Below are positions 15,886-63,461 of a stretch of 64,000 nt of DNA, piece by piece; position 1 is the first letter of the stretch; every line of letters begins with the position of its first letter. The stretch comes from an uncultured candidate division Zixibacteria bacterium. GTDB taxonomy: Bacteria > Zixibacteria > MSB-5A5 > GN15 > FEB-12. The stretch spans positions 341,469-405,468 of the forward strand of contig CAVPPI010000004.1 in the NCBI GenBank assembly GCA_963707365.1, in the 5' to 3' direction. Both the position numbers and the translations under genes were made by a program. The notes under the pieces were generated by a model. It ran no database searches and was not told the DNA's origin. It saw nothing but the letters and a program-made list of their open reading frames with translations.

Positions 15886-15919
15886 CGAAAAAAGCCGCCA
15901 GTATTGGCGGCTTTTTTTT
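15886..15919. terminator. bidirectional rho-independent terminator between convergent genes
   Basis: An A-run, then GCCGCCA (15894..15900) / TGGCGGC (15905..15911) with loop GTAT, then T8. Confidence 0.8.
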
Positions 15920-15938
15920 GCCATAGAATCTGGTTATA

Positions 15939-16466: not shown

Positions 16467-16485
16467 AGGAGCTTTGGTGCACTCC

Positions 16486-16689: not shown

Positions 16690-16732
16690 TTCGCTTTATC
16701 TATCCTTTGTCTCACATTAACAATATATCTTC

Positions 16733-41760: not shown

Positions 41761-42394
41761 GAAGGTGTGTACGGGCTGCCACGAAGCACATCTGCAGGCC
41801 CATACGGCCGGGTTTGACCCGCATGTCGGGTTGGATCTATCGTGTACTTCGTGTCACTCAATCCATGGAGGAAGTCGCAATCTCCTCATCGATGAGGCCG
41901 GTGGTTTTTGCGGAACATGCCATGTGGCCGTAGTTAATGAGTTCCGAAAGAGATCAAACCATCCGTTGACCGGCCAGAACGTGGGTTGTATCGACTGCCA
42001 TAGCTTTTCTGCGAGCAGTGAGCCCGATTACGGACACGGCAGCAATGCCACTTGTTTCAATTGTCACCCGCTGGAGAGTGGTCCGTTTCTCTTTGAACAT
42101 GAAGCTGCCAACTCGTTTACGCCCGAAGGCGGCGGGTGCGTGGCCTGTCATTCGCCTCATGGTAGCTCGAATGAACGTCTCCTCAATCAACCCGACAATC
42201 GCCTGTGTCTTCAGTGTCATGGGGCACCGCCCGGTCACCTGACGGCGCACGATGGCGACCTGGCTGGCTATGCTTGTATGGACTGCCACAGCGATGTACA
42301 TGGATCATATGATAATCTCTATCTGCTTGATCCGCAGCTTGGCAGCAAACTCGGAAGCGGTCCGGATGGTTGCTTCTGCCATTACTACCGGTAG
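41660..42394 (+). CDS. MtrA/DmsE-like decahaem c-type cytochrome, C-terminal fragment
   Basis: Eight CXXCH motifs (CTGCH, CTSCH, CGTCH, CIDCH, CFNCH, CVACH, CLQCH, CMDCH). Blocks such as ..KRSNHPL..CIDCH and GPFLFEH are collinear with MtrA as I recall it. Confidence 0.8.
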   Translation: MLACPVTRAQQHTWTIPARGTIGNPAVMEPVGVEKVCTGCHEAHLQAHTAGFDPHVGLDLSCTSCHSIHGGSRNLLIDEAGGFCGTCHVAVVNEFRKRSNHPLTGQNVGCIDCHSFSASSEPDYGHGSNATCFNCHPLESGPFLFEHEAANSFTPEGGGCVACHSPHGSSNERLLNQPDNRLCLQCHGAPPGHLTAHDGDLAGYACMDCHSDVHGSYDNLYLLDPQLGSKLGSGPDGCFCHYYR

Positions 42395-42409
42395 GAAGGT
42401 GGCTAATAT

Positions 42410-43981: not shown

Positions 43982-44022
43982 TCAAAAAGTGGTGGCTATA
44001 CTGTTGAAAACAAGGAGGAAAG

Positions 44023-44121
44023 ATGGATAAACTCAAGTATGTAGCGATTGGCCTGGCGTTGCTGCTGTTGGTCCTGGTCGGTTGTGAACGGGAGATATCG
44101 AGCGGAACGTCCAAACGGTAG
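44023..44121 (+). CDS. lipoprotein signal-peptide fragment of the downstream cytochrome gene
   Basis: MDKLKYVAIGLALLLLVLVGCEREISSGTSKR*, with lipobox LVGC. The downstream cytochrome frame is open from 44088, so a single indel near 44088..44105 joins the two. Confidence 0.6.
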   Translation: MDKLKYVAIGLALLLLVLVGCEREISSGTSKR

Positions 44122-44144
44122 ACAACGGTAGCGACGATTGTCTG

Positions 44145-45074
44145 GTGTGTCACAGTGGTTATCTTGATCAGGCGCAGGGCGAATGGGCTAACTCTATTCA
44201 TGCGTCCGGCAACTATATCGATTACACTAACCGGGGCGGCTCCGACTGCACCAAATGTCACAATGAGGAAGGTTACCTGTCTTTCCTGGAGACCGGCACA
44301 CTTCCCGATGTGCCGTTTGAGAGTGTTAGTGCCATTGGATGTTTCACCTGCCACAATCCGCATGAGACAGGTACGTTGGAGCTGAGGCAGACGGAGGCTG
44401 TGATGCTGATTGACGGAGTCATGTTTGACCACGGCACCGCTAACCAGTGTGCTGCCTGTCATCAATCGCGGTATGACCCGGCTGATATTGTGGCCGATAT
44501 TTCAGTCAACAATCGCTTTGGACCTCATCACGGTAATCAGGGTGATATGATTCAGGGGACTAATGGATACGAGTTCCCCGGCGAGAGTTATGAATTTCCG
44601 CTTTCACCTCACGCTAATCAAGTGACCAATGCGTGTATCGGATGCCACATGGGTGATCCGCAAACACACGTTGGCTATAAGCTGGGCGGGCATTCGTTCA
44701 ATATGACGATTGAAGGTTCGGACGAAACGCTCGTGGATATATGCGCCGCGAGCAGCTGTCACGGCGAAGATGTTGAGGAATACGATTTCCTGGCCGACGA
44801 GGACTATGACCTCGACGGTGAGATCGAGGGATACCAGACTGAAATTCTGGGTATGCTCGATTCGCTGGCGATATTACTTGAAGGTCAGGGAGTACTGGAG
44901 GACGGCACCCCGGTTTCCACCACCATTGCCGATCCTCATGTGGCCGGGGCGCTCTACAACTGGGTGTTTGTCGAGGAAGATCGGTCTGAGGGCATTCACA
45001 ATTTCAACTATGCCCGGAGTCTTCTGGAAGCCTCGATTGATTATGTTTCGAATTTGCCTGTTAATGGCACGTAG
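44145..45074 (+). CDS. multihaem c-type cytochrome (5 CXXCH plus one CX4CH-like site), probable surface lipoprotein
   Basis: CLVCH (straddling the listed GTG start), CTKCH, CFTCH, CAACH, CIGCH, and CAASSCH at 44742..44762. C-terminal ..SEGIHNFNYARSLLEA.. is of a type seen in many multihaem cytochromes. Confidence 0.8.
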   Translation: MCHSGYLDQAQGEWANSIHASGNYIDYTNRGGSDCTKCHNEEGYLSFLETGTLPDVPFESVSAIGCFTCHNPHETGTLELRQTEAVMLIDGVMFDHGTANQCAACHQSRYDPADIVADISVNNRFGPHHGNQGDMIQGTNGYEFPGESYEFPLSPHANQVTNACIGCHMGDPQTHVGYKLGGHSFNMTIEGSDETLVDICAASSCHGEDVEEYDFLADEDYDLDGEIEGYQTEILGMLDSLAILLEGQGVLEDGTPVSTTIADPHVAGALYNWVFVEEDRSEGIHNFNYARSLLEASIDYVSNLPVNGT

Positions 45075-45098
45075 GCCATTGAACACGATATACGTATC

Positions 45099-45128
45099 AA
45101 GCCCCTTCTGTGCGGAAGGGGCTTTTTT
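45099..45128 (+). terminator. rho-independent terminator after the cytochrome cluster
   Basis: AAGCCCCTT (45099..45107) / AAGGGGCTT (45116..45124), running into T6. Confidence 0.8.
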
Positions 45129-45245
45129 GTTGGTCCTAACAGTCCTGTGTCTGCGCGTGCAGCCATGCTGGCACGAGAAATTGTAGTTGCGTATCTTGCT
45201 ATCGCTGTATAAATTACCCGCGCTAACCAGATCAGACAACGTCTG

Positions 45246-45334
45246 TGCCGGAGTGGTGGAATTGGTAGACACCAGGGACTTAAAATCCCTTGCTCCGTAA
45301 GGGGCGTGCCGGTTCGAGTCCGGCCTCCGGCACC
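45246..45334 (+). tRNA. tRNA-Leu (TAA)
   Basis: Acceptor GCCGGAG/CTCCGGC, anticodon stem AGGGA/TCCCT with loop CTTAAAA, long variable arm, T-arm GCCGG-TTCGAGT-CCGGC. The 3' CCA is encoded. Confidence 0.95.
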
Positions 45335-45442
45335 AACTATGTTGGTTTTTCCAACGACGATTCCCTAATAGACCGAATATTGAGCAACTGAGACGACTAC
45401 GTATTAAGTCAGTATTGTATTCGATTAAGCCGACACAGTCGG

Positions 45443-46897
45443 TTAAGACTCAAGTAGAGCGGAATCTGACCCCAGAAACCAGGAAATCCAGCGCTGAACA
45501 TCGTTGCGTCTGACCTCTGATCGAAGCATCCGCATGCGATTCTGGCGCTCCTCCGGACTCATGATGTAAGCAGCATAGATGGCATCGGCCGTGCCCTCAA
45601 GATCGTACGGATTGACCATCAAAGCCCCTTTTGACAACTGCTCCGCTGCGCCGGCGAATTCTGATAAAATCAGCACGCCATTGTTTTCGATCGAACTGGC
45701 GCAGTATTCTTTGGCCACCAGATTCATACCGTCGCGCAAGGGAGTTATAAGAGCAATCTCGCAGGCCCGATAGTAGCCGAGCAACTGTGTGCGGTCCAGT
45801 TCCCGGAACATATAGTGGATAGGGACCCAGCCATGCTGGGAAAAGCGGCCGTTGATACCTCCGGCCAGTCCATCGAGATATTCCTTGAGATCGCGGTACT
45901 CCGGTACTTTGGTTCGACTCGGGACAACGATTTGAACCAGCGATACGTTTTGGTGAAGCTCCGGATACTTCTCCAGCGCGCGCTCGAAAGCCAGAAATCT
46001 ATCGGGAATGCCTTTGGTGTAATCGAGGCGGTCCAGTCCCAGAATGAGTTTGCGGCTGGGTAGATTCTCGTGCACAAACCAGGCGGAGTCGGCCACTTCC
46101 GCAGACCGGGCGTGGTCGTTGAATTCGTTAAAATCGATACTGATAGGGTAGGTGCCGAGTTTTATGGTGCGGCCTTCGAGCTTGATTTCGGTCTGGTAGC
46201 GGTAACCCCGGACAGATGCCTCAGGGATCAGCGCTTTGACGCACTGGACGAAATTCCGTCGGTCGTGGTTGGTTTGAAAGCCGAGATGGTCATATTTCAA
46301 CAGTGCCTGGATAATCTCTGTCCTCCACGGCATTCGTCTGAGGAGATCACACGATGGGAAGGGGATGTGCAGGAAGAAATTCAGTTCAACACTGACGCTC
46401 ATCTCACGCAGATAGTGAGCGACCAACATCAGTTGGTAGTCGTGTATCCATACGAAATGTTCGGGTGCTGCATGTTTGGCAATCTCAGTGGCAAATCTCT
46501 CGTTGACGGTGTTGTAGACATCCCAATTCCCAGCATCGAAAGTAGCATAACCTATCAGATCATGAAACAGCGGCCAGATAGTCTGATTTGAAAAGCCGCG
46601 GTAGTACTTCTCGATTTCCTCATCACTGATTAAGACTGGCTTTAATTCGTATCCTTGCTCCTGGCTGTGCGTTTCAAGAAGCGGTACCACTGGAGCTTCC
46701 GGTCCACAACCCGGCCAGCCCATCCATGTGCCGTGATTGGCTTTCATCAGGGGGGCAAGTGCTGTGATCAGTCCGCCGGAACTGGCGTTTACCTTCCAGT
46801 GACCATCTATCTGGTCTACGATGATAGGTAGACGGTTGGAGACGATGAATAATTTTCTTTCCGGCTGTTGCAATTGAACCTCCTGAATTTGGGTCAC
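45443..46897 (-). CDS. otsA: alpha,alpha-trehalose-phosphate synthase (GT20)
   Basis: ..[24 protein letters not shown].., ..[11 protein letters not shown].., ..[12 protein letters not shown].., ..[14 protein letters not shown].. Confidence 0.93.
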
Positions 46898-46995
46898 GCA
46901 GCAACTAATTGTGGATTACTATGCGAGATGCTTTGCAAGTCCTGACCTGTCTATGATACGTATTTTTTAAGGGAAACGCAAACGCTCTGACACGT

Positions 46996-47769
46996 CTAAG
47001 GCCAGCGCTGAAGAAATTCACTCAGTTCATCAGGTGGATGTAGCCACAGGTCAGCCGCGGTGGGGCGTAGCTCAGGACGTACTAAGACACTGAGGCCATG
47101 TTTCTTAAGAGTGCCAAAGGCATCTTCATCGGTAAGGTCATCGCCGAGGTAAGCTCTTGGCGTTGCGTCGTCGGTCTGTTCGATAAGATTCATTACGGGT
47201 ATCGATTTATTAGTGCCGGCCACGCGAATTTCGATGCCACCATCAAAACTATGTAGCTCAAGGCCGGAACTCTCAATCCCCGGCTGCCATCGGTCGAGAA
47301 CGGTACTGCGGATTGTTTCAGCCTTGTCCTGCGGAAGACCTCTCCAATGAAAAGCGGCTCCCGACGGTTTAAATTCACAAAGGTCCACCAGGCTGTTGGC
47401 GCTTATCCACGAATACAGCTCGCTCAGTCTTTCGCTTACAATATCGGGCAGCGGCGCTACGGAGTGTTCACCTTCGGGAGTCAAACGTTCCAGGCCATGG
47501 CAACCCCACAGTTCGGGTAAGCGGTCGAATTCAAGCAGATTTTTGAGGCTGTCGATTGACCGTCCGCTGATTATGACCACTCGCGTTTTCTCGCTGCTGA
47601 AAAGGCGCTCCAGCACCGGGGTAATTTCGGGATAGGGGAAAGCACGATCTCGCTCTGTGGTAAACGGCGACAGAGTTCCATCATAGTCAAGCATCAGTAG
47701 TGGTTTATCAGAAGTCGCGAGGCTGCGATAGAATGAATCGAGCGGAAAGTCGGTGTTCAAAAGTTTCAT
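46996..47769 (-). CDS. otsB: trehalose-phosphatase (HAD)
   Basis: LMLDYDGTLSPF (HAD motif I), ..VVIISGRS.., ..GDDLTDEDAF.. Confidence 0.9.
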   Translation of the reverse strand: MKLLNTDFPLDSFYRSLATSDKPLLMLDYDGTLSPFTTERDRAFPYPEITPVLERLFSSEKTRVVIISGRSIDSLKNLLEFDRLPELWGCHGLERLTPEGEHSVAPLPDIVSERLSELYSWISANSLVDLCEFKPSGAAFHWRGLPQDKAETIRSTVLDRWQPGIESSGLELHSFDGGIEIRVAGTNKSIPVMNLIEQTDDATPRAYLGDDLTDEDAFGTLKKHGLSVLVRPELRPTAADLWLHPPDELSEFLQRWP

Positions 47770-47778
47770 CGTATACTA

Positions 47779-49020
47779 TTAAACGCGTATAAGCGTATTC
47801 TCCAAGCCAACCCTGAAGCCGAGCATCAAAGTCAGATATTCCCTGAGGTGTCTTGTCAGCAGGAAATTATCTCGGACGAACTGCTTTGCTGTGGTTCCGA
47901 TTGTCACCATACGTTCGGGTTGTCTGAGCAATTCGCGGATGCGCAAGGCTGCTCCTTCGGGTGAATCGACAGTATAGCCGGTATGATGATTGTGTATTTG
48001 CAGACGAATACCGCCAACGTTACCGCCAATGACAGGTTTGCTTTTCCACATGGCCTCGGTGACAGTCAGGCCGAATCCCTCTTGCAACGATTTTTGTATT
48101 ACTATTGTGGATGCTCTCTGGAGAGCATTTATCGTTCGATGGGCATCGCTGGGAAGCTGTAATACGAAGATCCTGTCATTTCCTTGAGCGAATTCCATCA
48201 CTTCCCGATAGACGGCATCACCTTCGGGGTCATCGCTCGCTCCGCCCCCGGCGAGAACGAGTTGGGCATCCACGGCTCCGTTGAGAAGGTTGAAAGCCTC
48301 GATAACTCCAACCGGATCTTTGAAACGGTCAAAGCGCGAAATCTGTGTGAGAATCGGTATTTTCGATGACAGTCCGAATTCTTTAACGGTCTTATCTACC
48401 TCCCGCTGGGGCAGATCACGATTCTTTTCGCTCAGGGGATCGATACTCGGTGCGATTATGAACTGTGGATGGGGGAGACTTTGCGCAAAAATCGGCATCG
48501 AGAAAATGCTGGCATCGAAGCCATCGACCTTTGTCTTGAGATAACTCCACACTTTTCGGTATGGATGACTGACATCGATGTGACATCTCCATATCCATTT
48601 GCCTTTGCGGTTGGGGCAGAGGTCGAGCAAGTGCGCCGGTTGCGGGTCGTGTATGAATACAAAGTCAGCCTCTTCGAGGATAGGTCGCAGGCGCTCAGCA
48701 TTAGCCGCAACAGTCTCTTCGTAGGTTTTTATCATAGATGGTGTGAGTGCTACGTGGTTGCCCTGAAGGCCGTTGTGGAAAGCTTTGGTGACGTTGAAAT
48801 ATTCATCGTGTCCGTCGACGACCTCCCATGATGCGTTCAGTCCGAGGTCATTCATGAGCGGAATCAGCCAGTGCAGGATTTCCGCAACCCCTCCGCCGGC
48901 TTTTGTGGAGTTTACATGCACCACGCTGGCCCCGGCGAGATTGTTTGCCAGTTGTTTTAACTGCGAGACAGCTACCGCGCCGGCAACTGGTTCGTATGTA
49001 TCGAGTGATCTGCCGTTCAT
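47779..49020 (-). CDS. treT: trehalose glycosyltransferring synthase-like GT4 glycosyltransferase
   Basis: Collinear with archaeal TreT as I recall it: VHVNSTKAGGGVAEILHWLIPL..FNVTKAFHNGLQGN, WIWRCHID, PSIDPLSEKN, ITQISRFDRFKDP, LQEGFGLTVTEAMWKSKPVIGGNVGGIRLQI. Confidence 0.8.
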   Translation of the reverse strand: MNGRSLDTYEPVAGAVAVSQLKQLANNLAGASVVHVNSTKAGGGVAEILHWLIPLMNDLGLNASWEVVDGHDEYFNVTKAFHNGLQGNHVALTPSMIKTYEETVAANAERLRPILEEADFVFIHDPQPAHLLDLCPNRKGKWIWRCHIDVSHPYRKVWSYLKTKVDGFDASIFSMPIFAQSLPHPQFIIAPSIDPLSEKNRDLPQREVDKTVKEFGLSSKIPILTQISRFDRFKDPVGVIEAFNLLNGAVDAQLVLAGGGASDDPEGDAVYREVMEFAQGNDRIFVLQLPSDAHRTINALQRASTIVIQKSLQEGFGLTVTEAMWKSKPVIGGNVGGIRLQIHNHHTGYTVDSPEGAALRIRELLRQPERMVTIGTTAKQFVRDNFLLTRHLREYLTLMLGFRVGLENTLIRV

Positions 49021-49700
49021 GCTTGAGCCTTTTCCGCGATGGGCTTGACCGCGTTGATGAGACTGTTTTTAAGTTCCGGCAATGTCAGGTAATAGAAATC
49101 TATATTCTTGAAAGTCTCGATAAGTTCTTCACAACCCTTTCCAAATCCCTGACACCAGGCGGTGAAGTCATCCACTCTGTTCGCGGTGCGTCGTCTTGCC
49201 TCGATAAAGTGATAATATATCGAACTCCAGCTCATCTTCGGAAGAACCTCAGCCAGCTCGGCAGGATTCTGAAGCACAATACCGCTGCTGAAAACAACTG
49301 TGGCTGCCCGCATGAAGACGAAATCGTCTCCTTTGGGGACCGAGGGGATATACGGCAGTTCGCTCAAGCGGTCATCGATAATTTCAACCACGGTTTCCCG
49401 CAAACGCTCAAATGATTCGAATTTGTACGGGTTCAGTATTCCCAGTCGTTCGGCGAGTACGCGGTCTCTTAGAAATCTGGCCGACCAGACGGCAAAGTCG
49501 TTTCGGAACTCGGGGTCATCGAAAGACGGGCGAACGAGCGTTTCACTGAAGTGGTGAAACAGGCAATCTTCCGGGCAAACCGCGATTCTTTCGCGTAGCT
49601 CGCGCAGGTTAACGGCGGTGTCGACTCCGCCCATTCTGGTAATCAGCGTGCAGTCTTTGACTTCAAAGGGCATATTAATTTTCTCGGTAGGCATGCTCAT
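49017..49700 (-). CDS. conserved hypothetical protein with an internal two-fold repeat, translationally coupled to treT
   Basis: Its stop overlaps the treT start by 4 nt. Two ~95-aa modules align: ..NLRELRERIAVCPEDCLFHHFSE..NDFAVWSARF.. with ..NPAELAEVLPKMSWSSIYYHFIE..DDFTAWCQGF.. Confidence 0.65.
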   Translation of the reverse strand: MSMPTEKINMPFEVKDCTLITRMGGVDTAVNLRELRERIAVCPEDCLFHHFSETLVRPSFDDPEFRNDFAVWSARFLRDRVLAERLGILNPYKFESFERLRETVVEIIDDRLSELPYIPSVPKGDDFVFMRAATVVFSSGIVLQNPAELAEVLPKMSWSSIYYHFIEARRRTANRVDDFTAWCQGFGKGCEELIETFKNIDFYYLTLPELKNSLINAVKPIAEKAQA

Positions 49701-52599: not shown

Positions 52600-53838
52600 T
52601 TGAATAACCAGAGAAAGGATGATAAAGTAATGGTCGTGGGACAAAACGACAAGACACAGGTCGAGCAGTGGAAAATCGCCCCACACGTGGTTAAGTTGGA
52701 ATCCTCGATTATTCGAGAAATTCTAAAAATATCCTCACAGCCGGGCGTGATTTCATTTGCCGGAGGATTACCCGCCCCGGAGTTGTTCCCTATGGAGGAC
52801 CTCAGACAGGCCATGGACGAGGTAGTCCGCAAACACGGTGCCCCTGCCTTTCAGTATACGCTGTCTCGCGGAGTTCCGCAGCTCAGAGAGCTGCTGGCCA
52901 AAAGAGCGGTAGAACGAGGCACTTCGTGCGATGTAGATAATATCCTTGTTACTGCCGGAGCGCAGCAGGCAATAGAACTCGTCGCCAGGGCCTTTGTTGA
53001 CCGCGGAGATTACATCATCACGGAATATCCTACTTATGTCGGCGCTCTTCAGGCTTTCAACTATTATCAGGCTCGCTATGCTACGGTCGATATGGATGAC
53101 GAGGGGATGATAATCGAACAGGCTGAAGAAAAGATTATCAAATACAAACCGAAGCTTATCTACACGGTCTCGAATTTTCAGAATCCTACCGGAATTACGA
53201 TGTCCAAAAGTCGTCGCGAGAAGCTGATAGAGCTTGGGATGCGCTATAACATACCGATTGTCGATGACAATCCGTACGGTGATATTCGTTTCGCCGGGGA
53301 AAGAGTCCCCACGCTTAAATCGATCGGTGGGGACCAGGTGATAGCGCTTAGATCCTTTTCGAAAATCGTTGCTCCCGGACTCAGGTTGGGTTGGATGAAC
53401 GGTCCGAAAGCGATCATGGGACACTTCGAGAAGGTAAAGCAGTGTACCGACCTCCACACCAACACGCTCTGCCAGTATATGATGTACGAGTTTATCTCGG
53501 CCGGTAAATTGGAGCCGCATATAGCAAAGATTGTGGCGGACTACCGCGGTAAGCGCGATGTAATGCTGAAGACAATGCGTGAGACATTCCCGGATGGAAT
53601 AAAATGGACCGAGCCGGAGGGTGGTCTTTTCCTCTGGGTCGAGCTTCCAAAGCACATGTCGGCCAAGGACCTTCTGCCAAAGGCCGTTGAGATGAAAGTC
53701 GCTTACGTGTATGGCTCGCCATTCTATCCCGATGGCGGTGGTCAAAATACGATGAGGTTAAACTTCTCCAATGCTTCTCACGAGAACATCGTCGAGGGTA
53801 TCACACGATTGGCGAAGTTGCTCAAGGATAATATTTAA
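52600..53838 (+). CDS. PLP-dependent aminotransferase (class I/II, ARO8/LysN-like)
   Basis: ..SIIREILK..ISFAGGLPAPELFP.., ..NFQNPTG.., and the PLP-lysine block SFSKIVAPGLRLGWM. An alternative ATG start is at 52630. Confidence 0.88.
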   Translation: MNNQRKDDKVMVVGQNDKTQVEQWKIAPHVVKLESSIIREILKISSQPGVISFAGGLPAPELFPMEDLRQAMDEVVRKHGAPAFQYTLSRGVPQLRELLAKRAVERGTSCDVDNILVTAGAQQAIELVARAFVDRGDYIITEYPTYVGALQAFNYYQARYATVDMDDEGMIIEQAEEKIIKYKPKLIYTVSNFQNPTGITMSKSRREKLIELGMRYNIPIVDDNPYGDIRFAGERVPTLKSIGGDQVIALRSFSKIVAPGLRLGWMNGPKAIMGHFEKVKQCTDLHTNTLCQYMMYEFISAGKLEPHIAKIVADYRGKRDVMLKTMRETFPDGIKWTEPEGGLFLWVELPKHMSAKDLLPKAVEMKVAYVYGSPFYPDGGGQNTMRLNFSNASHENIVEGITRLAKLLKDNI

Positions 53839-53867: not shown

Positions 53868-53892
53868 AAAAGCCCGCTCTGCGGGCTTTTTT
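53868..53892 (+). terminator. rho-independent terminator after the aminotransferase gene
   Basis: AAAGCCCGC / GCGGGCTTT with loop TCT, followed by a T-run. Confidence 0.75.
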
Positions 53893-53931
53893 AAATTGCT
53901 TAATAAGGCAGGAGAGCGTTTAGTAGTCTCT

Positions 53932-54777
53932 ATGCAAATACAATATGATAAATACCACGCTCTGCAAAACGACTTTATCGTTATAGAGCAAAATAAGACG
54001 AAGCTCACAAGGCGACAGTTGCCGAAGCTGACAAGGGCTATGTGTCAGCGCCGGACCGGTGTCGGCGCTGATGGCGTTCTCTTGCTTTCTAAAGCCGATG
54101 GCGTCAGTTTCAAGGTTGACCTTTACAATGCCGATGGTGGCTGGGCTGAAAAGTCCGGCAATGGTCTGAGGATAGCAGGGGTTCACGCGTTTCTTAAGCA
54201 GAGGTCGGGCAAGAAGCGGAGTTTTCTGTTTCGCACCGGCGCCGGCATAGACCGCGTAGAGATTGGCCGAAAGAGTCGCAAAGGTTACACAGTCACAGTT
54301 GAGCTTCGACAGCCGGAGTTCGAGGCATCCAAAGTGCCCGTAAAAACCAGACAGCAATTTATGATTAATTCGCCGCTCACAGTCGGCTCGGTCAAACTGC
54401 CTGTCACTTGTCTGTCTGTAGGGAATCCGCATACGGTCCTGTTCGTTGACAATTTCGATTTCGACTGGCACGCTCTCGGCGCCGATCTTGAATTTCACAA
54501 AGCATTTCCCAATCGCACCAACGTGGAGTTTGTCAAAGTACTCTCCAGTCGCAAGGTGCGAGTTTGCGATTGGGAGCGGGGAGCCGGGGCTACCGGATCA
54601 TCCGGTACCGGGGCAGCGGCATCGGTATGCGCCGGCGTTATGCTTGGCATTCTCGATCGAAGGTGCGAGGTCGAGTTTGAGACCGGCTCACTCCGCGTCC
54701 ACTGGATTGAAAAAACCGGCACTATTGAACTTACCGGACCCGTTGAGCATGTGACGCGAGGGACTTTCGAACTATAA
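53932..54777 (+). CDS. diaminopimelate epimerase-fold (DapF family) protein with Ser at both catalytic Cys positions
   Basis: HALQNDFIVIE, ..YNADGGWAEKSGNG.., ..LSVGNPHTVLFV.., ..WERGAGATGSSGTGAAA.. are collinear with E. coli DapF. Start placed at ATG 53932, because the TTG at 53896 abuts the upstream terminator. Confidence 0.8.
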   Translation: MQIQYDKYHALQNDFIVIEQNKTKLTRRQLPKLTRAMCQRRTGVGADGVLLLSKADGVSFKVDLYNADGGWAEKSGNGLRIAGVHAFLKQRSGKKRSFLFRTGAGIDRVEIGRKSRKGYTVTVELRQPEFEASKVPVKTRQQFMINSPLTVGSVKLPVTCLSVGNPHTVLFVDNFDFDWHALGADLEFHKAFPNRTNVEFVKVLSSRKVRVCDWERGAGATGSSGTGAAASVCAGVMLGILDRRCEVEFETGSLRVHWIEKTGTIELTGPVEHVTRGTFEL

Positions 54778-56218: not shown

Positions 56219-58030
56219 ATGAGCAAGAATAAATACAAAGAGAAGTTTGCCATTGCCACCAGTGAGGCATTTCGGAAGGAATATCCCGAGAAGTATGCTG
56301 AACTGGGGGAGCAGAGTGTTTTTAGCTGGGATTTCATCTATAACAATCTGGAAAAGCCCAAAGACCCGACCATGGGGCGTTTTGCCCTTCCGGTTTTCAA
56401 ATACGCCGGTTCTCTGAAAGACAAGCCGCAGCATATAGCCGCCCAAATAGCAGAGTCGGCCAACAAGATTCTCGAGAGCACCGGAGACGGTGGCATTGTA
56501 ACGACGTTGGCCACGGGTGGGTTTATCAATGCCAGAACCGATTTCGCCCTTGAAGGCGGCGAGACTCTTCGCAATGTAATCAATCAGGATACGGCTTATG
56601 GCTCGTCAGATGACGGTCAGGGTCGCACAGTGCTCGTGGAGTACTGCTCGGCCAATATAGCTAAGCCGTTTGGTATTGGCCACTTACGTACGACTATCTT
56701 AGGCAATGCTTTAAGGCGAATATTTCTGAAGCTGGGCTATGATGCGGTCGGAATTAACTATGTTGGTGACTGGGGCACTCAGTTCGGCAAAATGATTGTA
56801 GCATACCAGAAGTGGGGCGGGGATCTGCAGGAGGGGCAAGAAACCGTTTCCGATCTGCTTGGTCTGTACGTTCGGTTTCACGAGGAAGAACAAACGGATA
56901 CATCACTTAATGACGCTGCACGGGAAGCATTCAAGAATCTTGAACAAGGCAAGCCGGAAGAAACGGCTCTGTGGGAGCGGTTCAGGCAGGTTTCCCTTGC
57001 GGAATGGCAGCGCGTGTTTGACATAATGGGGATAGAATTCGACTGGACGACCGGTGAGGCCTTTCTCAACGATAAGATTGAACCGGTTATACAGCGTCTT
57101 CGCACTGCCGGCCTGACATCGATCTCCGATGGGGCACTCATTGTCGATTTGCACGACCCACAGCTACCGCCGTGTTTGTTGCGTAAAGCTGATGGGGCTA
57201 CACTGTATGCCACCAGAGATATTGCAGGATTGCTGTATCGTGCGGGTAAATATGATTTTCAGGAAGCTCTCTATGTTGTAGCTTCGGCTCAGTCGGACCA
57301 TTTCAAACAAGTCTTCAAGGTTGTCGAGATGCTCGAACAGGCTGAAGATGTGCCGGAGACGGAGCGCGTATCTCCGCGGGCAAAACATGTTGATTTCGGC
57401 TGGGTGAAGTTTGGCGATAAGACCATGTCAACCCGGCGCGGCAATATCGTTCTTCTTGAGGATGTGGTAAACCAGGCTGTTGAGCTGGCCCGCAGGAAGA
57501 TAGCGGAGAAAAATCCGGACCTGAAAAATATCGACGAAACAGCAATGATGATCGGCGTGGGTGCTGTGATTTTCTCGCAGCTTTCCGTCAGACGCCAGAA
57601 GGATGTCAATTTCGATTGGGACGAGGTCCTCAGTTTTGAGGGGGAGACCGGCCCTTATCTTCAATACACCCACGCGCGTCTGTGTTCATTGATGCGAAAT
57701 TACTCCGGTGAAATAGTTGCCGAAGTAAATGTCAGGTTACTTGATAACGAAGAAGAGAAGAGGGTCGTGGAGCTTGTCGCGGATTTTCCGGATGCTGTCA
57801 GGGATTCGGCCAGAAACTACGAACCCAACTTCATTTCGACTCATCTGTTGAAACTGGCCGGCGCCTTCAACAAGGTGTACCAGCGTAAAGATGAGGCCGG
57901 GAAAATAGACAAGATAATTTCGGATAATGCCGACCTGACAGCGGCCAGGATGGCTCTGGTCAAATCGGTTCAGCTCGTTATCAGGGAAGGTCTTTACCTG
58001 TTAGGGCTGAAAGCTCCCGAAGAGATGTAG
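56219..58030 (+). CDS. argS: arginine--tRNA ligase
   Basis: ..VEYCSANIAKPFGIGHLRTTILGNAL.. (HIGH region), ..DWGTQFG.., ..MSTRRG.. (KMSK-like), and a C-terminal ..GLKAPEEM. Confidence 0.93.
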   Translation: MSKNKYKEKFAIATSEAFRKEYPEKYAELGEQSVFSWDFIYNNLEKPKDPTMGRFALPVFKYAGSLKDKPQHIAAQIAESANKILESTGDGGIVTTLATGGFINARTDFALEGGETLRNVINQDTAYGSSDDGQGRTVLVEYCSANIAKPFGIGHLRTTILGNALRRIFLKLGYDAVGINYVGDWGTQFGKMIVAYQKWGGDLQEGQETVSDLLGLYVRFHEEEQTDTSLNDAAREAFKNLEQGKPEETALWERFRQVSLAEWQRVFDIMGIEFDWTTGEAFLNDKIEPVIQRLRTAGLTSISDGALIVDLHDPQLPPCLLRKADGATLYATRDIAGLLYRAGKYDFQEALYVVASAQSDHFKQVFKVVEMLEQAEDVPETERVSPRAKHVDFGWVKFGDKTMSTRRGNIVLLEDVVNQAVELARRKIAEKNPDLKNIDETAMMIGVGAVIFSQLSVRRQKDVNFDWDEVLSFEGETGPYLQYTHARLCSLMRNYSGEIVAEVNVRLLDNEEEKRVVELVADFPDAVRDSARNYEPNFISTHLLKLAGAFNKVYQRKDEAGKIDKIISDNADLTAARMALVKSVQLVIREGLYLLGLKAPEEM

Positions 58031-58155: not shown

Positions 58156-59169
58156 ATGTTAGTTGTGATGGAAAAGAATGCTACCGACCAGATGGTGGCT
58201 AAAGTATGTATCGTTATCGAATCAATGGGATTGGTGGCGCACCCGATTCCCGGCGCTCAGCGGACGGTGGTCGGGGTTACCGGCAACAAATCCAAGGTCG
58301 ATGCCGACAAGATCTTTGCGCAACCGGGTGTAAAAGACATAATCCATGTCACCCCGCCGTTCAAGCTGGTCAGCCGCGACCACAAACCCGAAACAACCGT
58401 AGTAGAGATCGATGGCGTTCGTATCGGCGGCAAGGAATGCGTCATGATGGCCGGTCCCTGCTCGGTGGAAACCCGTGAACAGTGCCTTGCGATTGCTGAA
58501 GTGGTTTCGAAGGCGGGAGCGAAGGTTTTTCGGGGTGGCGCCTTCAAACCCAGAACATCTCCGTATAGTTTTCAGGGACTGGGGGAGGATGGTCTGAAGA
58601 TTCTGCGTGAAGTTAAGCAGAAATACGGACTGCTCATTGCCACCGAGGCGCTCGACACCGAGACGCTTGACATGGTTGCCGAGTATGCTGATATCATACA
58701 GATTGGCGCGCGTAACATGCAGAATTTCTCGTTGCTGCGCAAAGCAGGACGTTCGCAGAAGCCGGTGTTGCTCAAACGGGGAATGTCGGCTACGTTGGAA
58801 GAGTTTCTCATGGCGGCCGAATATATACTGGCTGAGGGCAACCCTAACGTGATTCTCTGCGAACGCGGCGTGCGGATATCCGCCGATCGCGCCAGAAATA
58901 CGCTCGATCTTTCTGCGATTCCCTTTGTAAAACGGACGAGCCACCTGCCGATTATCGCCGATCCCAGTCACGGGACCGGGCGCAAAGACTATGTCATCCC
59001 GCTCTCTCGGGCGGCGGTGGCGGTTGGGGCCGATGGATTACTGGTTGAAGTCCATAACGATCCGGCCAATGCTCTTTCCGACGGAGCTCAGGCAATTACA
59101 CCGGATATGTTCGGCGACCTCATGGACCAGGTAAAGGCAATTGCGGCTGTACTCGACAGGACCTTTTGA
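58156..59169 (+). CDS. aroF: 3-deoxy-7-phosphoheptulonate (DAHP) synthase, type I-beta with N-terminal regulatory domain
   Basis: An N-terminal ~65-aa ferredoxin/ACT-like domain (MLVVMEKNATDQMVAKV..) as in Thermotoga-type enzymes, then ..MAGPCSVE..GGAFKPRTSPYSFQG.. Confidence 0.9.
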   Translation: MLVVMEKNATDQMVAKVCIVIESMGLVAHPIPGAQRTVVGVTGNKSKVDADKIFAQPGVKDIIHVTPPFKLVSRDHKPETTVVEIDGVRIGGKECVMMAGPCSVETREQCLAIAEVVSKAGAKVFRGGAFKPRTSPYSFQGLGEDGLKILREVKQKYGLLIATEALDTETLDMVAEYADIIQIGARNMQNFSLLRKAGRSQKPVLLKRGMSATLEEFLMAAEYILAEGNPNVILCERGVRISADRARNTLDLSAIPFVKRTSHLPIIADPSHGTGRKDYVIPLSRAAVAVGADGLLVEVHNDPANALSDGAQAITPDMFGDLMDQVKAIAAVLDRTF

Positions 59170-60512
59170 TGCCCAGAGAGCTTCACCCGACAAAAAAATA
59201 TGGCGGCACGATAACTGTTCCCGGCGACAAGTCTATAGGTCATCGTGCGGCGCTTTTTTCGATTCTATCCAAAGGCGAAATTACAGTTGTCAATTTCCCG
59301 CGCAATGCCGATTGTCTCAAGTCTCTTGCCGCAGCTGAAGCTTTTGGTGTTACGGTTAGCGAGCAGGGTGGGTCTTTGAGGCTTACGCCACCGGAGAAAC
59401 CCTGTGTTGCGCCGGATGCAATCATCGACTGCGGCAATTCTGCGACTACGGCGCGCCTTCTGGCCGGTATCATAGCCGGGTCGGAAATGACTGTGACTCT
59501 TGCCGGCGATGAATCATTGTCCAAACGGCCAATGGCCAGAGTAATCGAACCTCTCACAGCTATGGGTGCCGAGTTTTTCGCTCAGGACAATAAACTTCCG
59601 GTAAAAATAAGCGGCAAGAAACTGCTTCCGTTCGAATATCAGATGCCGCTGCCATCGGCGCAGGTGAAATCCGCTATTTTGCTTGCCGGACTGGCCTCAT
59701 CTTGCTCGATTGTTGTGCGTGAAGAATTTGTCACGCGCGACCACACGGAGATAATGCTGACGGAAATTGGCGAGGGAGTCACCAGAAGAGAAATCAAGCC
59801 GGTTATGGTTCAGGACGAGGTTGATCCGAGGAAGAAGAAAATGCAGATGCCCGAGCCTTTCAAGAACGAAATCAGCATCAATTCTCAGGCGCGAATAAAC
59901 GGCGGCATAATAGACATTCCCGGAGATTTCTCAACGGCAGCCTTTTTCATGGCCGGTGCGGCGATATCCAAAAAGACAATCACAATAGAAAACGTGGGGC
60001 TCAATGCCACACGCTCCGGATTTCTGGATTATTTGAGGGCTATTGGCTGCAAAGTCGAAATTACCGACAGAAGTACGGTTTCCGGCGAGCCCAGAGGAAA
60101 CGTTACGGTAACCGGAGGCGACCTCAAATCGAGAAAAATCTCCGGTGAGTCGACTGCTGAACTCATCGATGAAATTCCGGCGGTCGCTATAGTCGCTGCG
60201 TTCGCGAGCGGTACGACGGTGATTCGCGATGCGGCCGAGCTGCGCGTCAAGGAATCCGATCGACTTGAAGCCATAGCCGAGAATCTGAAGCTTATGGGAG
60301 TCAAGTGCGGGGTGCTTGAGGACGGTCTGGCCATTGAAGGCGGAAGAGAACTTACCGGCGCCGACTTCAAATCGTATGGAGACCATCGAATTGCGATGGC
60401 GTTCTCCGTTGCTTCGCTGTTTCTGGTCGGTCCGTCGAGTATCGATGACCCCGACATCGTTGAAGTCTCCTGTCCCGGCTTCTATAGCTTGCTGGAAAAA
60501 GTAACGGCATGA
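59166..60512 (+). CDS. aroA: 3-phosphoshikimate 1-carboxyvinyltransferase (EPSP synthase)
   Basis: ..VPGDKSIGHRA.., ..CGNSATTARLL.., ..LRVKESDRL.., ..YGDHRIAMAF.. Its ATGA overlaps the aroF stop. Confidence 0.93.
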   Translation: MMPRELHPTKKYGGTITVPGDKSIGHRAALFSILSKGEITVVNFPRNADCLKSLAAAEAFGVTVSEQGGSLRLTPPEKPCVAPDAIIDCGNSATTARLLAGIIAGSEMTVTLAGDESLSKRPMARVIEPLTAMGAEFFAQDNKLPVKISGKKLLPFEYQMPLPSAQVKSAILLAGLASSCSIVVREEFVTRDHTEIMLTEIGEGVTRREIKPVMVQDEVDPRKKKMQMPEPFKNEISINSQARINGGIIDIPGDFSTAAFFMAGAAISKKTITIENVGLNATRSGFLDYLRAIGCKVEITDRSTVSGEPRGNVTVTGGDLKSRKISGESTAELIDEIPAVAIVAAFASGTTVIRDAAELRVKESDRLEAIAENLKLMGVKCGVLEDGLAIEGGRELTGADFKSYGDHRIAMAFSVASLFLVGPSSIDDPDIVEVSCPGFYSLLEKVTA

Positions 60513-61351
60513 AAGAGAAGTATATGTTCGGAGTGGTAGGCTATAACATAGCCTATTCTCTCTCGCCACAGATTTTCAAGGCGATTTCTAAAATCACAGG
60601 GATACCGGGCGCTTTCAAATCGCACGATATCACACCAGCTCGATTTGACATAGATTTCCCTGATGTTATCAAAAGCGGCATTGACGGTTTTTCGGTAACC
60701 ATACCGTTTAAGAACAGGGTGATAGAATATATAGACGAGATCGATGCCTCGGCGGCGGCCGTTGGGGCTGTCAATTCGGTAGGCATAAAAAACGGAAGAG
60801 TGTTTGGTTATAACACCGACAGCCATGGCTTCTCTCTGCCCTTGCGAGCGCACGCTGACAAGCTGCGCAATGGAACTGCTCTCGTATTTGGTGCGGGAGG
60901 GGCGGCTAAGGCTGTGGTTCACTGTCTGGCTACGCAATTTCAGATGAAGCGCATATGTGTTTTTGCCCGCAACGCGGACAGGCTGAAACATTTCAAACAG
61001 TGTGTCGAAAGTCGGATTGATGGTCTCAGGCTCGAAACAGAGTGTATCGATGGGTACAATCCTGCCGCCCTTGAGTCATACGATATTGTCATCAACTGTA
61101 CACCTCTGGGCGGATGGAACCATCCCGACGAATCGCCATTGCCGGAGACCTTCGCCTGGTGTGAGGGGGCGATATATTACGACCTCTCGTACAACGAGAA
61201 CCACAGAATCGTTCGGACAGCATCCGGGAATTCTTTAACGGCCTACGATGGTTCCATAATGTTGGTCGGACAGGCTCTCTGGTCGCTTGAACTCTGGACG
61301 GGTATACAGGTGGAATTTGAGCCCGTCTATAGAGAAGTGTTTCATCGTTAA
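60509..61351 (+). CDS. aroE: shikimate dehydrogenase
   Basis: ..GYNIAYSLSPQIF.., ..FSVTIPFK.., ..GAVNSV.., ..GYNTD.., ..GAGGAAKAV.. It overlaps the aroA stop by 4 nt. Confidence 0.9.
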   Translation: MKEKYMFGVVGYNIAYSLSPQIFKAISKITGIPGAFKSHDITPARFDIDFPDVIKSGIDGFSVTIPFKNRVIEYIDEIDASAAAVGAVNSVGIKNGRVFGYNTDSHGFSLPLRAHADKLRNGTALVFGAGGAAKAVVHCLATQFQMKRICVFARNADRLKHFKQCVESRIDGLRLETECIDGYNPAALESYDIVINCTPLGGWNHPDESPLPETFAWCEGAIYYDLSYNENHRIVRTASGNSLTAYDGSIMLVGQALWSLELWTGIQVEFEPVYREVFHR

Positions 61352-61365
61352 CGAACGGGGGACTG

Positions 61366-61944
61366 ATGCACAGGGCCGGTAACATATTTCTCGTCGGCTT
61401 TTCCGGTTCGGGTAAATCGACTATCGGGCGCAAGCTGGCTCGAAAACTCAATGTGCAGTTTTATGATACAGATGAAATAATCGAGCAAGCCGCCGGGAAA
61501 AGCATCCCGCGCATATTCAGCGAAGACGGGGAAGATGCCTTTCGCCATCTTGAACAACAGGCCATAGAGGGAATTGTCAGACGACGGTTGCACAGCAAGG
61601 TTATCGCTCTCGGGGGTGGTGCTTACCAGAACAAGCTTACACGGAATCTTCTTAACGAATACGGGGTCGTTGTATACTTGAGTTGTTCACAGGAGGAGTT
61701 GCTCAGGCGAATCAGCACGTTGCCGGACCGTCCCAAACTTCATGGGCTGTCGGCGGATGCCTCCAAAACGAGTAAGGCCGTTCTCAGGGAACGGATGAAA
61801 TCTCTGCTGGGGAAACGTATCAAACACTACCGGGCAGCTCATCTCACGTTTTCGACGAGTGGCAAAGACGCAGATAAGTCGGCTGTCCAGCTAAGAGCAA
61901 GGTTAGCGCACTATTATGCCCGAAGTAAAAGTAAATCCGGGTAA
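61366..61944 (+). CDS. aroK: shikimate kinase
   Basis: P-loop GFSGSGKSTIGRKLA, ..FYDTDEIIE.., ..FRHLEQQA.. Confidence 0.88.
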   Translation: MHRAGNIFLVGFSGSGKSTIGRKLARKLNVQFYDTDEIIEQAAGKSIPRIFSEDGEDAFRHLEQQAIEGIVRRRLHSKVIALGGGAYQNKLTRNLLNEYGVVVYLSCSQEELLRRISTLPDRPKLHGLSADASKTSKAVLRERMKSLLGKRIKHYRAAHLTFSTSGKDADKSAVQLRARLAHYYARSKSKSG

Positions 61945-63028
61945 ACGAAGCTATCCGATTGTCATCGGGTCACAGATTGACGCCAAACTGCCGACGAGGC
62001 TACGCAGGCTTGTCGGTGGCGGACGACTGTTTGTATTCTACGATGCCAACTTCTACGCGCTTCACGGAGCCAAGCTACAAAAATCGTTAGCCAAGACTTT
62101 CACTACAGTCGAATTCGTGCTTCCATCGGGGGAGCGGTACAAATCGCAAAGGCACCTCGGCAGGATTCATGACTTCCTGCTTTCCGAAAAGATATCCCGC
62201 ACCGACTTCATCCTGGCGTGCGGGGGAGGGGTGACCAGCGACCTGGTCGGCTTTGCAGCCTCGTCTACTCTGCGGGGCATACGGTGGGGTGTTGTTTCAA
62301 CGACGCTTTTGGGAATGGTCGACGCTGCCATAGGCGGAAAGACGGGTATCAATCATGTGATGGGAAAGAATCTGATAGGCGCCTACTGGCAACCATCTAT
62401 TGTATGGTGCGATACGACCTATCTGATGACTCTGACTGAGCGGGAGATAGTCTGCGGACTTGGTGAGGTGCTCAAATACGGCGGACTTCTGGGCAAACCA
62501 ATGCTCGACTTGCTACACGATTATAGAAATAGCGGTGACAGCTACAATCAGAAGCGACTGCAGCGGATAATCTCCCTTTCGGCGAAGTACAAGGCGCAAA
62601 TTGTCTCTGCTGATGAGACCGAGAAGGGAAAGAGGATGGTTCTCAATTTTGGCCATACATTTTCGCACGCTATAGAGTCAGCGATTGGATTCGGAAAGCT
62701 GACCCATGGAGAGGCGCTAATTATTGGTCTGAAAGCCGCTATAGAACTGAGCAAGCGGGTGTACTCAGGCCAGATAAAGGCGTTGGTCAGGTATGATGAA
62801 ATCGTTACGGATTTTCTTCACTCTGTAAGACGCCGTAAAATAGCAGCCGACGACGTAATGCTGGCTATGCAAATTGATAAAAAACGTCGCGGGCACGCTG
62901 CAAAATTCATCTTGCTTGAGAAACCGGGAAGGCCTATCATTGCGGAAGGAATAAACAGGGATCTGGTAAATAAATCACTGATATCAGCTCTTGAGGTTTA
63001 CAGGCTTTTCGGAGGACGCAATGCCTAA
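61916..63028 (+). CDS. aroB: 3-dehydroquinate synthase
   Basis: ..GERYKS.., ..GGGVTSDLVGFAAS.., ..VDAAIGGKTGIN.., ..LNFGHTFSHAIE.. It overlaps aroK by 29 nt. Confidence 0.92.
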   Translation: MPEVKVNPGKRSYPIVIGSQIDAKLPTRLRRLVGGGRLFVFYDANFYALHGAKLQKSLAKTFTTVEFVLPSGERYKSQRHLGRIHDFLLSEKISRTDFILACGGGVTSDLVGFAASSTLRGIRWGVVSTTLLGMVDAAIGGKTGINHVMGKNLIGAYWQPSIVWCDTTYLMTLTEREIVCGLGEVLKYGGLLGKPMLDLLHDYRNSGDSYNQKRLQRIISLSAKYKAQIVSADETEKGKRMVLNFGHTFSHAIESAIGFGKLTHGEALIIGLKAAIELSKRVYSGQIKALVRYDEIVTDFLHSVRRRKIAADDVMLAMQIDKKRRGHAAKFILLEKPGRPIIAEGINRDLVNKSLISALEVYRLFGGRNA

Positions 63029-63461
63029 AATTCTTGTGGTTAACGGGCCGAATTTGAATCTACTGGGAAAAAGAGAGCCGGAGATATATGGTTCCCGCAG
63101 CCTTGAAGACCTCAACGAGAAGCTGGCAATGTTGGCTGCCGACCTCAAGGTTGAACTGGATTTCTTTCAATCCAATTCCGAATCGGAACTTATAGATTTT
63201 ATACATAGCAAGGGCTTCAACGCCGATGGTATGATCATCAACCCCGGGGCATTCAGCCATTATAGCCTCGCCTTGCGCGATGCTATCGCTGCGGTTGGTA
63301 TCGACACAATCGAAGTCCATTTGTCCAATATTTACAGTCGGGAAGAGTTTCGTCAGAAATCGGTAATTGCACCGGTCTGTATAGGTCATTTAGCCGGTTT
63401 CGGATTTTACGGCTATGCTATGGCTCTGTCCTTTTTTAGTGACCTGTCGAAAGGGGAATAG
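63021..63461 (+). CDS. aroQ: type II 3-dehydroquinate dehydratase
   Basis: MPKILVVNGPNLNLLGKREPEIYG.., ..INPGAFSHYS.., ..EVHLSNIYSREEFR.. Start moved to ATG 63021 (GGAGGA SD at 63011). Confidence 0.92.
   Translation: MPKILVVNGPNLNLLGKREPEIYGSRSLEDLNEKLAMLAADLKVELDFFQSNSESELIDFIHSKGFNADGMIINPGAFSHYSLALRDAIAAVGIDTIEVHLSNIYSREEFRQKSVIAPVCIGHLAGFGFYGYAMALSFFSDLSKGE

Follow-up and report, generated by a model that had tools for sequence, protein, structure and literature searches.

Racemases of the DapF fold are the textbook example of a thiol/thiolate pair that removes a very non-acidic Cα proton. DapF, the diaminopimelate (DAP) epimerase, is an antibacterial target, and thiol-alkylating substrate analogues have been used against it. 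Here, a dapF-family gene of an uncultured candidate division Zixibacteria bacterium is described whose product carries Ser residues at both catalytic Cys positions. The gene is located in a stretch of 64,000 nucleotides (GenBank assembly GCA_963707365.1, contig CAVPPI010000004.1, positions 341,469 to 405,468 of the forward strand). This whole stretch is referred to as the window, and coordinates given without a locus name are positions in it.

The closest described systems are the canonical DapF enzymes (TIGR00652), for example those from E. coli, H. influenzae, Anabaena (PDB 9MRO), and Arabidopsis (3EJX). The window protein shares with them the two-domain pseudo-symmetric fold at 30–40% sequence identity, has identical residues for DAP recognition and carboxylate binding, and likewise places its catalytic positions at the N-termini of helices. 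It differs from them by Ser in place of both catalytic Cys residues, by the new residues Lys74, Asp/Glu213, Tyr8, and His85, and by the replacement of the canonical second-shell residues Cys79, Cys222, Met6, Met60, Met72, Met118, Met155, and Met260 (E. coli numbering). Oxidation shuts off canonical DapF via a disulfide between both catalytic Cys residues (PMC5296763). Growth of E. coli is unaffected by a dapF deletion, and a non-homologous DAP epimerase of the pyridoxal phosphate (PLP) type, the Alr-like DapF2, exists (GapMind 2026 preprint).

Natural replacements of a catalytic Cys have been described for the proline racemase superfamily, some members of which have a DapF-like fold and use a Ser instead of a Cys base for Cα proton abstraction. 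The 4-hydroxyproline 2-epimerase B9JQV3 possesses the bases Ser93/Cys236, and the trans-3-hydroxyproline (t3Hyp) dehydratase B9K4G4 the pair Ser90/Thr256; both structures have been solved (PMC4113996, eLife 2014). However, these proteins belong to another family (approximately 14% identity, TM-score of about 0.7), act on other substrates, and include no epimerase in which both faces carry a Ser. For the E. coli L-Asp/Glu racemase EcL-DER, which contains a Thr/Cys pair, one-way L-to-D conversion is reported (summarized in PMC8142540). It is cofactor-independent and has a hydroxyl in place of one Cys, which makes it a model for a Cys/Ser stage, but it has another fold (Asp/Glu racemase superfamily) and has kept one Cys. 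The C73S and C217S mutants of H. influenzae DapF (PDB 2Q9H and 2Q9J) contain singly the same substitutions as the window protein. In these laboratory mutants, however, the Ser sits in an otherwise thiol-adapted site, whereas the natural proteins have many compensating changes. No description of a natural Ser/Ser, Cys/Ser, or Cys-less DapF was found in the literature searched, and sequence sources label the Ser/Ser proteins "diaminopimelate epimerase" without caveat.

The interpretation favoured here, with a probability of roughly 0.45, is that the window protein is the Zixibacteria dapF orthologue and may still interconvert LL- and meso-DAP, two Ser hydroxyls replacing the thiol/thiolate pair.

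A DapF homologue with Ser at both catalytic positions

The start codon ATG 53932 agrees with the N-termini of homologues (MxIxFxKYHAL). Pfam detected two DAP_epimerase domains (PF01678) with 139.9 bits, and the DapF equivalog model TIGR00652 scored 220.5 bits at a cut-off of 114.65. The best solved relative is Anabaena DapF 9MRO (HMMER, 173 bits, E = 1e-49). A first-pass annotation, made by a model from the sequence alone, had claimed by-eye correspondence of two Ser residues to the catalytic Cys residues of E. coli DapF. MAFFT alignment with the E. coli protein confirmed this assignment for Ser75 and Ser224 (Table 1), and HMMER alignment to solved DapF chains resulted in the same placement. 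Both TCC codons are in frame with the start codon, and each is one transversion away from TGC. The peptides that had been listed as the remaining signature of the fold are all present as well (YNADGGWAEKSGNG, WERGAGATGSSGTGA, QNDFIV, and SVGNPHTVLFV).

A structural model was generated by means of AlphaFold2 (AF2) with 89 homologues as input. It has a predicted local distance difference test score (pLDDT) of 96 and a predicted TM-score (pTM) of 0.92. TM-scores to ligand-bound DapF structures were 0.92 (9mro_A) and 0.89 (3ejx); those to the two H. influenzae mutants were 0.81–0.83. In the model, Ser75 immediately precedes helix 76–89 and Ser224 immediately precedes helix 225–237. By sequence, fold, and pocket the protein belongs to the DapF family, yet it fails the family's defining catalytic feature, since the thiol pair Cys73/Cys217 is replaced by Ser75 and Ser224.

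Assignments to related enzyme types were rejected. The score for the bifunctional DapF/glutamate racemase of the Chlamydia type (NF038284) is 65.4 bits at a cut-off of 350. A PhzF-type isomerase is contradicted by the absence of a PF02567 match and by TM-scores of only 0.73–0.77 to PhzF structures at 12–14% identity. The O-ureidoserine racemase DcsC (7vdy_A, 27% identity) reaches 84 bits (E = 9e-23), compared to 173 bits for the DapF 9mro. Finally, PF05544, which represents the proline racemase superfamily, gave no match, and the identity to structures of that superfamily is approximately 14%.

Conservation of the Ser pair

Homologues were searched among 5.8 billion proteins, and the best 120 matches, which are 53–100% identical to the window protein and mostly named Zixibacteria, were analyzed. 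The second catalytic position is a Ser (GSSGTG) in all 120 of these sequences, and the first one is a Ser (WAEKSGNG) in all 110 whose first motif matched. The corresponding codons in 13 genome loci are not uniform but comprise TCC, TCG, TCT, TCA, and AGC. Pairwise ratios of non-synonymous to synonymous substitution rates (dN/dS) among close orthologues range from 0.09 to 0.19, which indicates purifying selection. The orthologue alignment that the first-pass annotation had proposed as a check thus shows Ser/Ser to be conserved across the clade, and the Cys/Cys orthologues that it had named as a possible refutation were not encountered: all positional orthologues are Ser/Ser, Cys/Ser, or Ser/Cys.

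Three readings had been offered initially, namely a Ser-utilizing epimerase, a non-epimerase member of the fold, and the product of two coincidental base errors. The former two both survive. For the latter, which would require that TGC was twice miscalled as TCC, it can be said that each codon is only one base from TGC and that at least one apparent frameshift is present elsewhere in the assembly, in the gene of an H+-pyrophosphatase (H+-PPase). However, 120 of 120 independent homologues from many assemblies are Ser/Ser, and dozens of substitutions co-vary with the Cys-to-Ser change. Due to this invariance down to 53% identity, the diversity of the Ser codons among genomes, and the low dN/dS values, a sequencing error is excluded for all practical purposes.

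The DAP pocket and the surroundings of the catalytic positions

DapF from C. glutamicum contacts DAP via ten residues, which are N15, N74, G84, N85, N159, N194, E212, R213, G222, and T223; substitution of eight residues (seven of the ten contacts, plus N15) by Ala nearly abolishes activity (PMC5296763). The E. coli equivalents of the contacts are N11, N64, G74, N75, N157, N190, E208, R209, G218, and S/T219. All ten are present in the window protein (N13, N66, G76, N77, N165, N197, E215, R216, G225, and T226). The contacts are conserved to 99–100% in the Zixibacteria Ser/Ser clade and to 95–100% in every Ser/Ser clade.

Co-variation was studied in an alignment of about 490 DapF homologues. Conserved Met residues of canonical DapF change together with the catalytic Cys that lies in the same half of the protein. 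The mean number of internal Met residues is 8.0 in Cys/Cys proteins and 9.3 in the Zixibacteria Cys/Ser proteins, compared to 4.0, 4.1, 4.4, and 2.4 in four Ser/Ser groups. At positions 6, 60, and 72 (E. coli numbering), Met is found in 66–92% of the Cys/Cys DapFs and in 100% of the Cys/Ser proteins, where Cys73 is kept, and it is lost in all Ser/Ser clades. Erosion of Met118, Met155, Met260, Cys222, and Leu242 has already begun in the Cys/Ser clade, where Cys217 is no longer present. The window protein contains Tyr8, Val62, Lys74, Leu125, Val163, and Leu267 at the co-varying Met columns, and Ile and Ala occupy the helix positions of Cys79 and Cys222, respectively, in the Zixibacteria Ser/Ser clade. 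The paired loss of Met residues and catalytic Cys suggests that canonical DapF has a feature in its second shell of which no mention was found in the literature searched.

Several ionisable residues are characteristic of the Zixibacteria Ser/Ser clade. Lys74 is found in 98% of its members, whereas Met occupies this position in 100% of the Cys/Ser clade. Position 213 is Asp or Glu in 92% of the Ser/Ser clade, in contrast to Val or Thr in 95% of the Cys/Cys proteins and Ser in 88% of the Cys/Ser clade. In the AF2 model, Asp213 lies two residues before the substrate-binding Glu215 in one predicted strand (208–215), and its side chain would face the same way as that of Glu215. Further residues of this kind are Tyr8 (97%), His85 (90%), and Asp/Glu63 (90%; Asp63 in the window protein). 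As judged from the alignment, the changes look like a co-ordinated rebuild of the catalytic surroundings rather than decay.

A relocation of the catalytic Cys within the Zixibacteria clade was considered and rejected. The only clade-specific new Cys is Cys245, and a partner Cys in the N-terminal domain is absent. In one predicted strand, Cys245 and Phe249 (E. coli position 242) are four residues apart.

A separate observation concerns the Pyrinomonadaceae Ser/Ser clade, which is represented by the acidobacterial protein P0163 and its 119 best relatives (loci L014–L017; the gene is at 10001–10882 in L014). These proteins possess two new invariant Cys residues, one per domain. In E. coli numbering, one is at position 60, which is Met in 92% of canonical sequences, and the other at position 220, which is Gly in 100%. 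In addition, the proteins contain Val instead of His159. It looks plausible from these sequences that the catalytic thiol pair of this clade has moved to neighbouring positions and is not lost.

Distribution and origin of the Ser variants

In a HMMER search of 1.84 billion cluster representatives, the 150 nearest clusters (50% identity) were classified. Cys/Cys was found in 106 of them, Ser/Ser in 32, Ser/Cys in four, and Cys/Ser in two; the DAP-contact residues are kept in all of these clusters. Named Ser/Ser members originate from Acidobacteria (Pyrinomonadaceae, OLB17 with KXK06521.1), Eisenbacteria, Terriglobia, and metagenome-assembled genomes (MAGs) labelled Ignavibacteriales. Closed Zixibacteria chromosomes encode Ser/Ser proteins as well (UCC45557.1 on CP070824.1; UCG60860.1; UCD62563.1). 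For P0163, the best 120 relatives are all Ser/Ser.

A Cys/Ser DapF (EMCGNG ... ASGTGA) is encoded between an aminotransferase gene and argS, i.e. at the position of the window gene, in the Zixibacteria MAGs GCA_012974705.1 and GCA_011774175.1 and in a JGI contig. A search with this form (clade of P0128/NIP44679.1) yielded 35 clusters with 48–100% identity, all of them Cys/Ser. Beyond these clusters, only Cys/Cys DapFs with 44–49% identity followed, the named ones of which belong to Bacillota or Margulisiibacteriota; no Cys/Cys DapF was seen within the Zixibacteria radiation in this search. The opposite arrangement, Ser/Cys with the codons TCC/TGC, occurs inside the Ser/Ser clade in the MAG Gpa_37 (L004 and L005). 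Both the Cys/Ser proteins and the Ser/Cys proteins of Gpa_37 resemble the window protein in gene position and pocket. However, Cys/Ser and Ser/Cys DapFs retain one thiol and the Met residues around it, whereas the window DapF has neither.

Each of the two Gpa_37 contigs contains the gene order dapF-MFS-argS, where MFS denotes a transporter of the major facilitator superfamily, with dapF at 5955..6797 in L004 and at 208..1050 in L005. The two DapFs are both Ser/Cys and 79% identical, and this MAG probably mixes two related populations. Outside Zixibacteria, Ser/Cys DapFs are scattered among Cys/Cys lineages (P0137, P0134, P0180, and P0185). Cluster P0137, which shares its pocket with the window protein, has 19 members, one of which is named Actinomycetia. 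It was seen on many contigs and is therefore no one-off error.

Neighbour-joining trees were calculated with the catalytic and co-varying columns masked, and 100 bootstraps were performed. In the observed tree, the Zixibacteria Ser/Ser and Cys/Ser groups join, although with weak support (28/100). Because the Ser/Ser sequences never formed one group (0/100 bootstraps), Ser/Ser, judged from these trees, arose more than once. In Zixibacteria, Ser/Ser plausibly arose in place from a dapF that was already devoid of Cys217, the Cys/Ser and Ser/Cys forms being intermediates. In a tblastn search with E. coli DapF as query, only the known copies and no second DapF homologue were found in the window and in 28 fetched loci (L001–L028).

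Genomic neighbourhood

Table 1. Positions of the dapF-family gene, of selected codons, and of further features in the window.
Feature	Position	Strand	Evidence
dapF-family open reading frame (ORF), 281 residues	53932..54777	+	ORF list, Pfam, TIGR00652, AF2 model
Lys74 codon AAG; Met precedes the catalytic Cys here in 83% of Cys/Cys DapFs	54151..54153	+	
Ser75 codon TCC; position of catalytic Cys73 of E. coli DapF	54154..54156	+	MAFFT alignment
Asp213 codon GAT; E. coli position 206	54568..54570	+	alignment
Ser224 codon TCC; position of catalytic Cys217 of E. coli DapF	54601..54603	+	MAFFT alignment
Class I aminotransferase, LysN/KAT-II/ARO8 type	52600..53838	+	Pfam, NCBIfam, closest PDB chains
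Intrinsic-terminator-like hairpin and U-run between aminotransferase and dapF	53868..53893	+	folding
MFS transporter, starts 1 nt past the dapF stop codon	54779..56104	+	Pfam
Arginyl-tRNA synthetase argS, conserved downstream neighbour	56219..58030	+	synteny; Arg_tRNA_synt domains in L022
Complete shikimate operon: DAHP synthase, EPSP synthase, shikimate dehydrogenase, shikimate kinase, DHQ synthase, DHQase II	58156..63461	+	Pfam
Trehalose cluster: GT20 OtsA	45443..46897		
Trehalose cluster: trehalose phosphatase	46996..47769		
Trehalose cluster: TreT-like	47779..49020		
Trehalose cluster: DUF5752	49017..49700		

The order aminotransferase - dapF - (...) - MFS - argS - aro genes is kept in Zixibacteria and related MAGs (Table 1). 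The constant core of the locus is the aminotransferase-dapF pair: the aminotransferase gene is always located directly upstream of this dapF lineage at a distance of 0–150 nt, with a spacing of zero in L026 (synteny in L002–L004, L006, L007, L009–L011, L019, L022, L023, L025, and L026). An ARO8/LysN-type aminotransferase upstream of dapF, separated from it by a terminator, had already been proposed in the first-pass annotation, and both the domain matches and the folded hairpin concur. The 65-nt hairpin stretch has a folding energy of -29.2 kcal/mol (z = -4.1); a consensus terminator scan missed it because A/U flanks lengthen the stem.

The closest solved relatives of the aminotransferase are Pyrococcus PH0207 (1x0m/3aov; KAT-II-like), Thermococcus MsAT (1wst), and Thermus LysN (2egy). 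An assignment as LL-DAP aminotransferase of the DapL type was rejected on account of a score of 98 bits at a DapL cut-off of 507 and of these LysN/KAT-II-type relatives. The enzyme could serve the aro/trp cluster as its aromatic aminotransferase. That it is an LL-DAP aminotransferase of a non-DapL type, which would form a two-step module with DapF, is speculative.

In three deeper members of the clade (L002, L019, and L026; 40–56% identity), dapF overlaps the start of trpE and is part of a packed operon with the order AT-dapF-trpE-trpG-trpD-MFS-trpC-trpF-trpB-trpA, where AT is the aminotransferase gene (L002 8640..18594; L019 5696..14837; L026 4735..12855). In L001, L003, and L006, trpE directly follows dapF. 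Orthologues of the MFS transporter with 46–63% identity occur in L001–L012 and L019, and L026 has an MFS gene in the same place. Within the trp operons of L002 and L019, the MFS gene between trpD and trpC encodes a protein that is 46–61% identical to the transporter of the window. A transporter within a trp biosynthetic operon is unusual. The Cys/Ser lineages contain neither trp genes nor an MFS gene at the locus.

Ser/Ser genes of other clades are found beside genes for an LD-carboxypeptidase (Peptidase_S66, LdcA) and a Mur ligase, beside a gene for a PG_binding_1 protein, or in an uninformative context. For example, on a contig of 1.19 Mb (L018, 12113..14485; ERZ25067264), a Ser/Ser dapF lies two genes upstream of a Peptidase_S66 LD-carboxypeptidase gene and a Mur-ligase gene. 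The pair of LD-carboxypeptidase and Mur ligase is typical of the recycling of peptidoglycan peptides. In summary, the context is that of housekeeping biosynthesis, which neither proves nor excludes a role in lysine or peptidoglycan synthesis.

Two GWxTD-domain genes and a DUF1573 gene are located at 13089..17431 in the window, approximately 35 kb upstream of the aminotransferase-dapF pair. The same set precedes this pair by 4–5 kb in the Cys/Ser Zixibacteria (L022 928..4589; L025 1..3267). It follows from the different distances that a block of the window (about 17.5–52.5 kb) was inserted or rearranged.

A putative thiol-free DAP epimerase and alternative functions

The proposal that the window protein is an epimerase is based on the invariance of Ser in independent clades, the reappearance of Cys at one site, the intact pocket around the reacting centre, purifying selection, and the apparent in-place descent from a dapF. 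DAP binding would lead to domain closure, and Ser75 and Ser224 at the helix N-termini would then act as proton acceptor and donor at Cα. A proton relay via Glu215/His167 and the newly gained residues Asp/Glu213 and Lys74 may assist the serines. Such an enzyme would probably be slower than the thiol enzymes and insensitive to disulfide formation and thiol-reactive agents. At the Cys/Ser stage, the enzyme would work from LL- to meso-DAP, the direction of biosynthesis; Cys would be the base, and Ser would donate the proton. Somewhat more tentatively, the idea may be extended to Ser/Ser DapFs in general: they may be thiol-independent DAP epimerases, reached by convergent evolution via Cys/Ser forms in Zixibacteria, Acidobacteria, and further uncultured phyla. 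In Zixibacteria, Lys74 and Asp/Glu213 would generate the alkoxide.

A number of observations speak against catalysis by two serines. The hydroxyl of Ser is much less acidic than a thiol; alkoxide formation therefore needs help, and the helpers named above are only proposed. Laboratory Cys-to-Ser mutants of DapF-fold racemases have been described as hindered or slowed. The stronger statement of the first-pass annotation, that single mutants of this kind are essentially inactive, roughly fits the published wording ("hinders", "slows"), but a natural Ser/Cys epimerase does exist in the proline racemase superfamily. A cofactor-independent amino-acid epimerase with Ser on both faces was not found in the literature searched. 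The Ser/Ser clade reaches only 184–220 bits with TIGR00652, compared to 280 for the Cys/Ser and 326 for the Cys/Cys form, and is thus more diverged. Furthermore, no dap or lys genes were found within the window, none of dapA, dapB, dapL, and lysA was found near the Ser/Ser genes in L001–L028, and in the Zixibacteria Ser/Ser clade the gene accompanies trp and aro genes and not those for lysine. The real work may be done by an enzyme encoded elsewhere in the genome, such as another DapF, a meso-DAP dehydrogenase, or a DapF2 of the PLP type.

An alternative is a repurposed DapF, which would bind DAP or a very close analogue without epimerizing it. Such a protein would serve in ligand binding or regulation, or it would catalyze another reaction or one that runs in a single direction, and meso-DAP would be the product of an enzyme encoded elsewhere. 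The loss of both canonical bases and the accelerated evolution relative to the Cys/Ser and Cys/Cys forms are in line with such a change, as are the existence of non-homologous DAP epimerases (DapF2) and the reported function of E. coli DapF as a non-catalytic partner of RppH. In the proline racemase superfamily, Ser/Thr pairs mark dehydratases and not racemases (PMC4113996). However, a non-catalytic binder is not expected to fix Ser absolutely at both sites in several independent clades, and the return of Cys at the second site in one lineage fits interchangeable acid/base residues. In addition, every substrate contact is kept, including those of the reacting centre, and the search described above yielded no Cys/Cys DapF from the Zixibacteria radiation. 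Repurposing is considered less probable than epimerase activity, but it is the main rival and a serious one. A further alternative is a new activity in aromatic or tryptophan metabolism. In this case, DapF, in concert with the aminotransferase and the transporter, would act on a relative of chorismate or tryptophan and not on DAP. The overlap or direct adjacency of dapF and trpE in six loci and the location of the window gene near argS and a complete shikimate operon would agree with this role, and PhzF, which has the same fold (TM-score of about 0.75), acts on a chorismate-derived amine. In contrast, all ten residues that bind both amino-acid ends of DAP are unchanged, a PhzF match in Pfam is absent, the Cys/Ser positional orthologues lack trp genes and MFS, and the Ser/Ser clades of other phyla lack an aromatic context. 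Moreover, mixed amino-acid supra-operons are known, for example aro-trp-hisC-tyrA of B. subtilis. An aromatic role is hence considered improbable.

Irrespective of the function, a large, conserved, and convergent set of natural DapF orthologues possesses neither Cys while the DAP pocket is untouched, and both outcomes would be informative. If the Ser/Ser proteins are thiol-free DAP epimerases, they would be the first cofactor-independent amino-acid epimerases without any cysteine, and neither disulfide shut-off nor oxidants nor thiol-directed inhibitors, for example aziridino-DAP (aziDAP), would affect them. Hydroxyls could then do the chemistry. The view of the mechanism would have to change, oxidation-proof biocatalysts would become available, and natural resistance to inhibitors of the aziDAP type would be expected. 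Otherwise, whole phyla (Zixibacteria, many Acidobacteria) would make meso-DAP by another route and keep a DAP-binding pseudo-enzyme. The surprise is tempered by the Ser/Cys precedent in the sister superfamily and by a possible second route to meso-DAP.

Other features of the window

The gene of the membrane H+-PPase (4063..6199, + strand) is divided between two ORFs that overlap and are read in different frames. The first one (4063..5154) corresponds to positions 1–265 of the Pfam domain H_PPase, and the second one (5084..6199) to positions 281–645. The frame shifts near 5066–5095, where a long homopolymer is absent. The split could be due to an assembly indel, a pseudogene, or a real frameshift. 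Two genes for multihaem c-type cytochromes with MtrC/NrfB-like motifs (41660..42394 and 44145..45074) adjoin the trehalose cluster, and together they make up the region 41660..49700.

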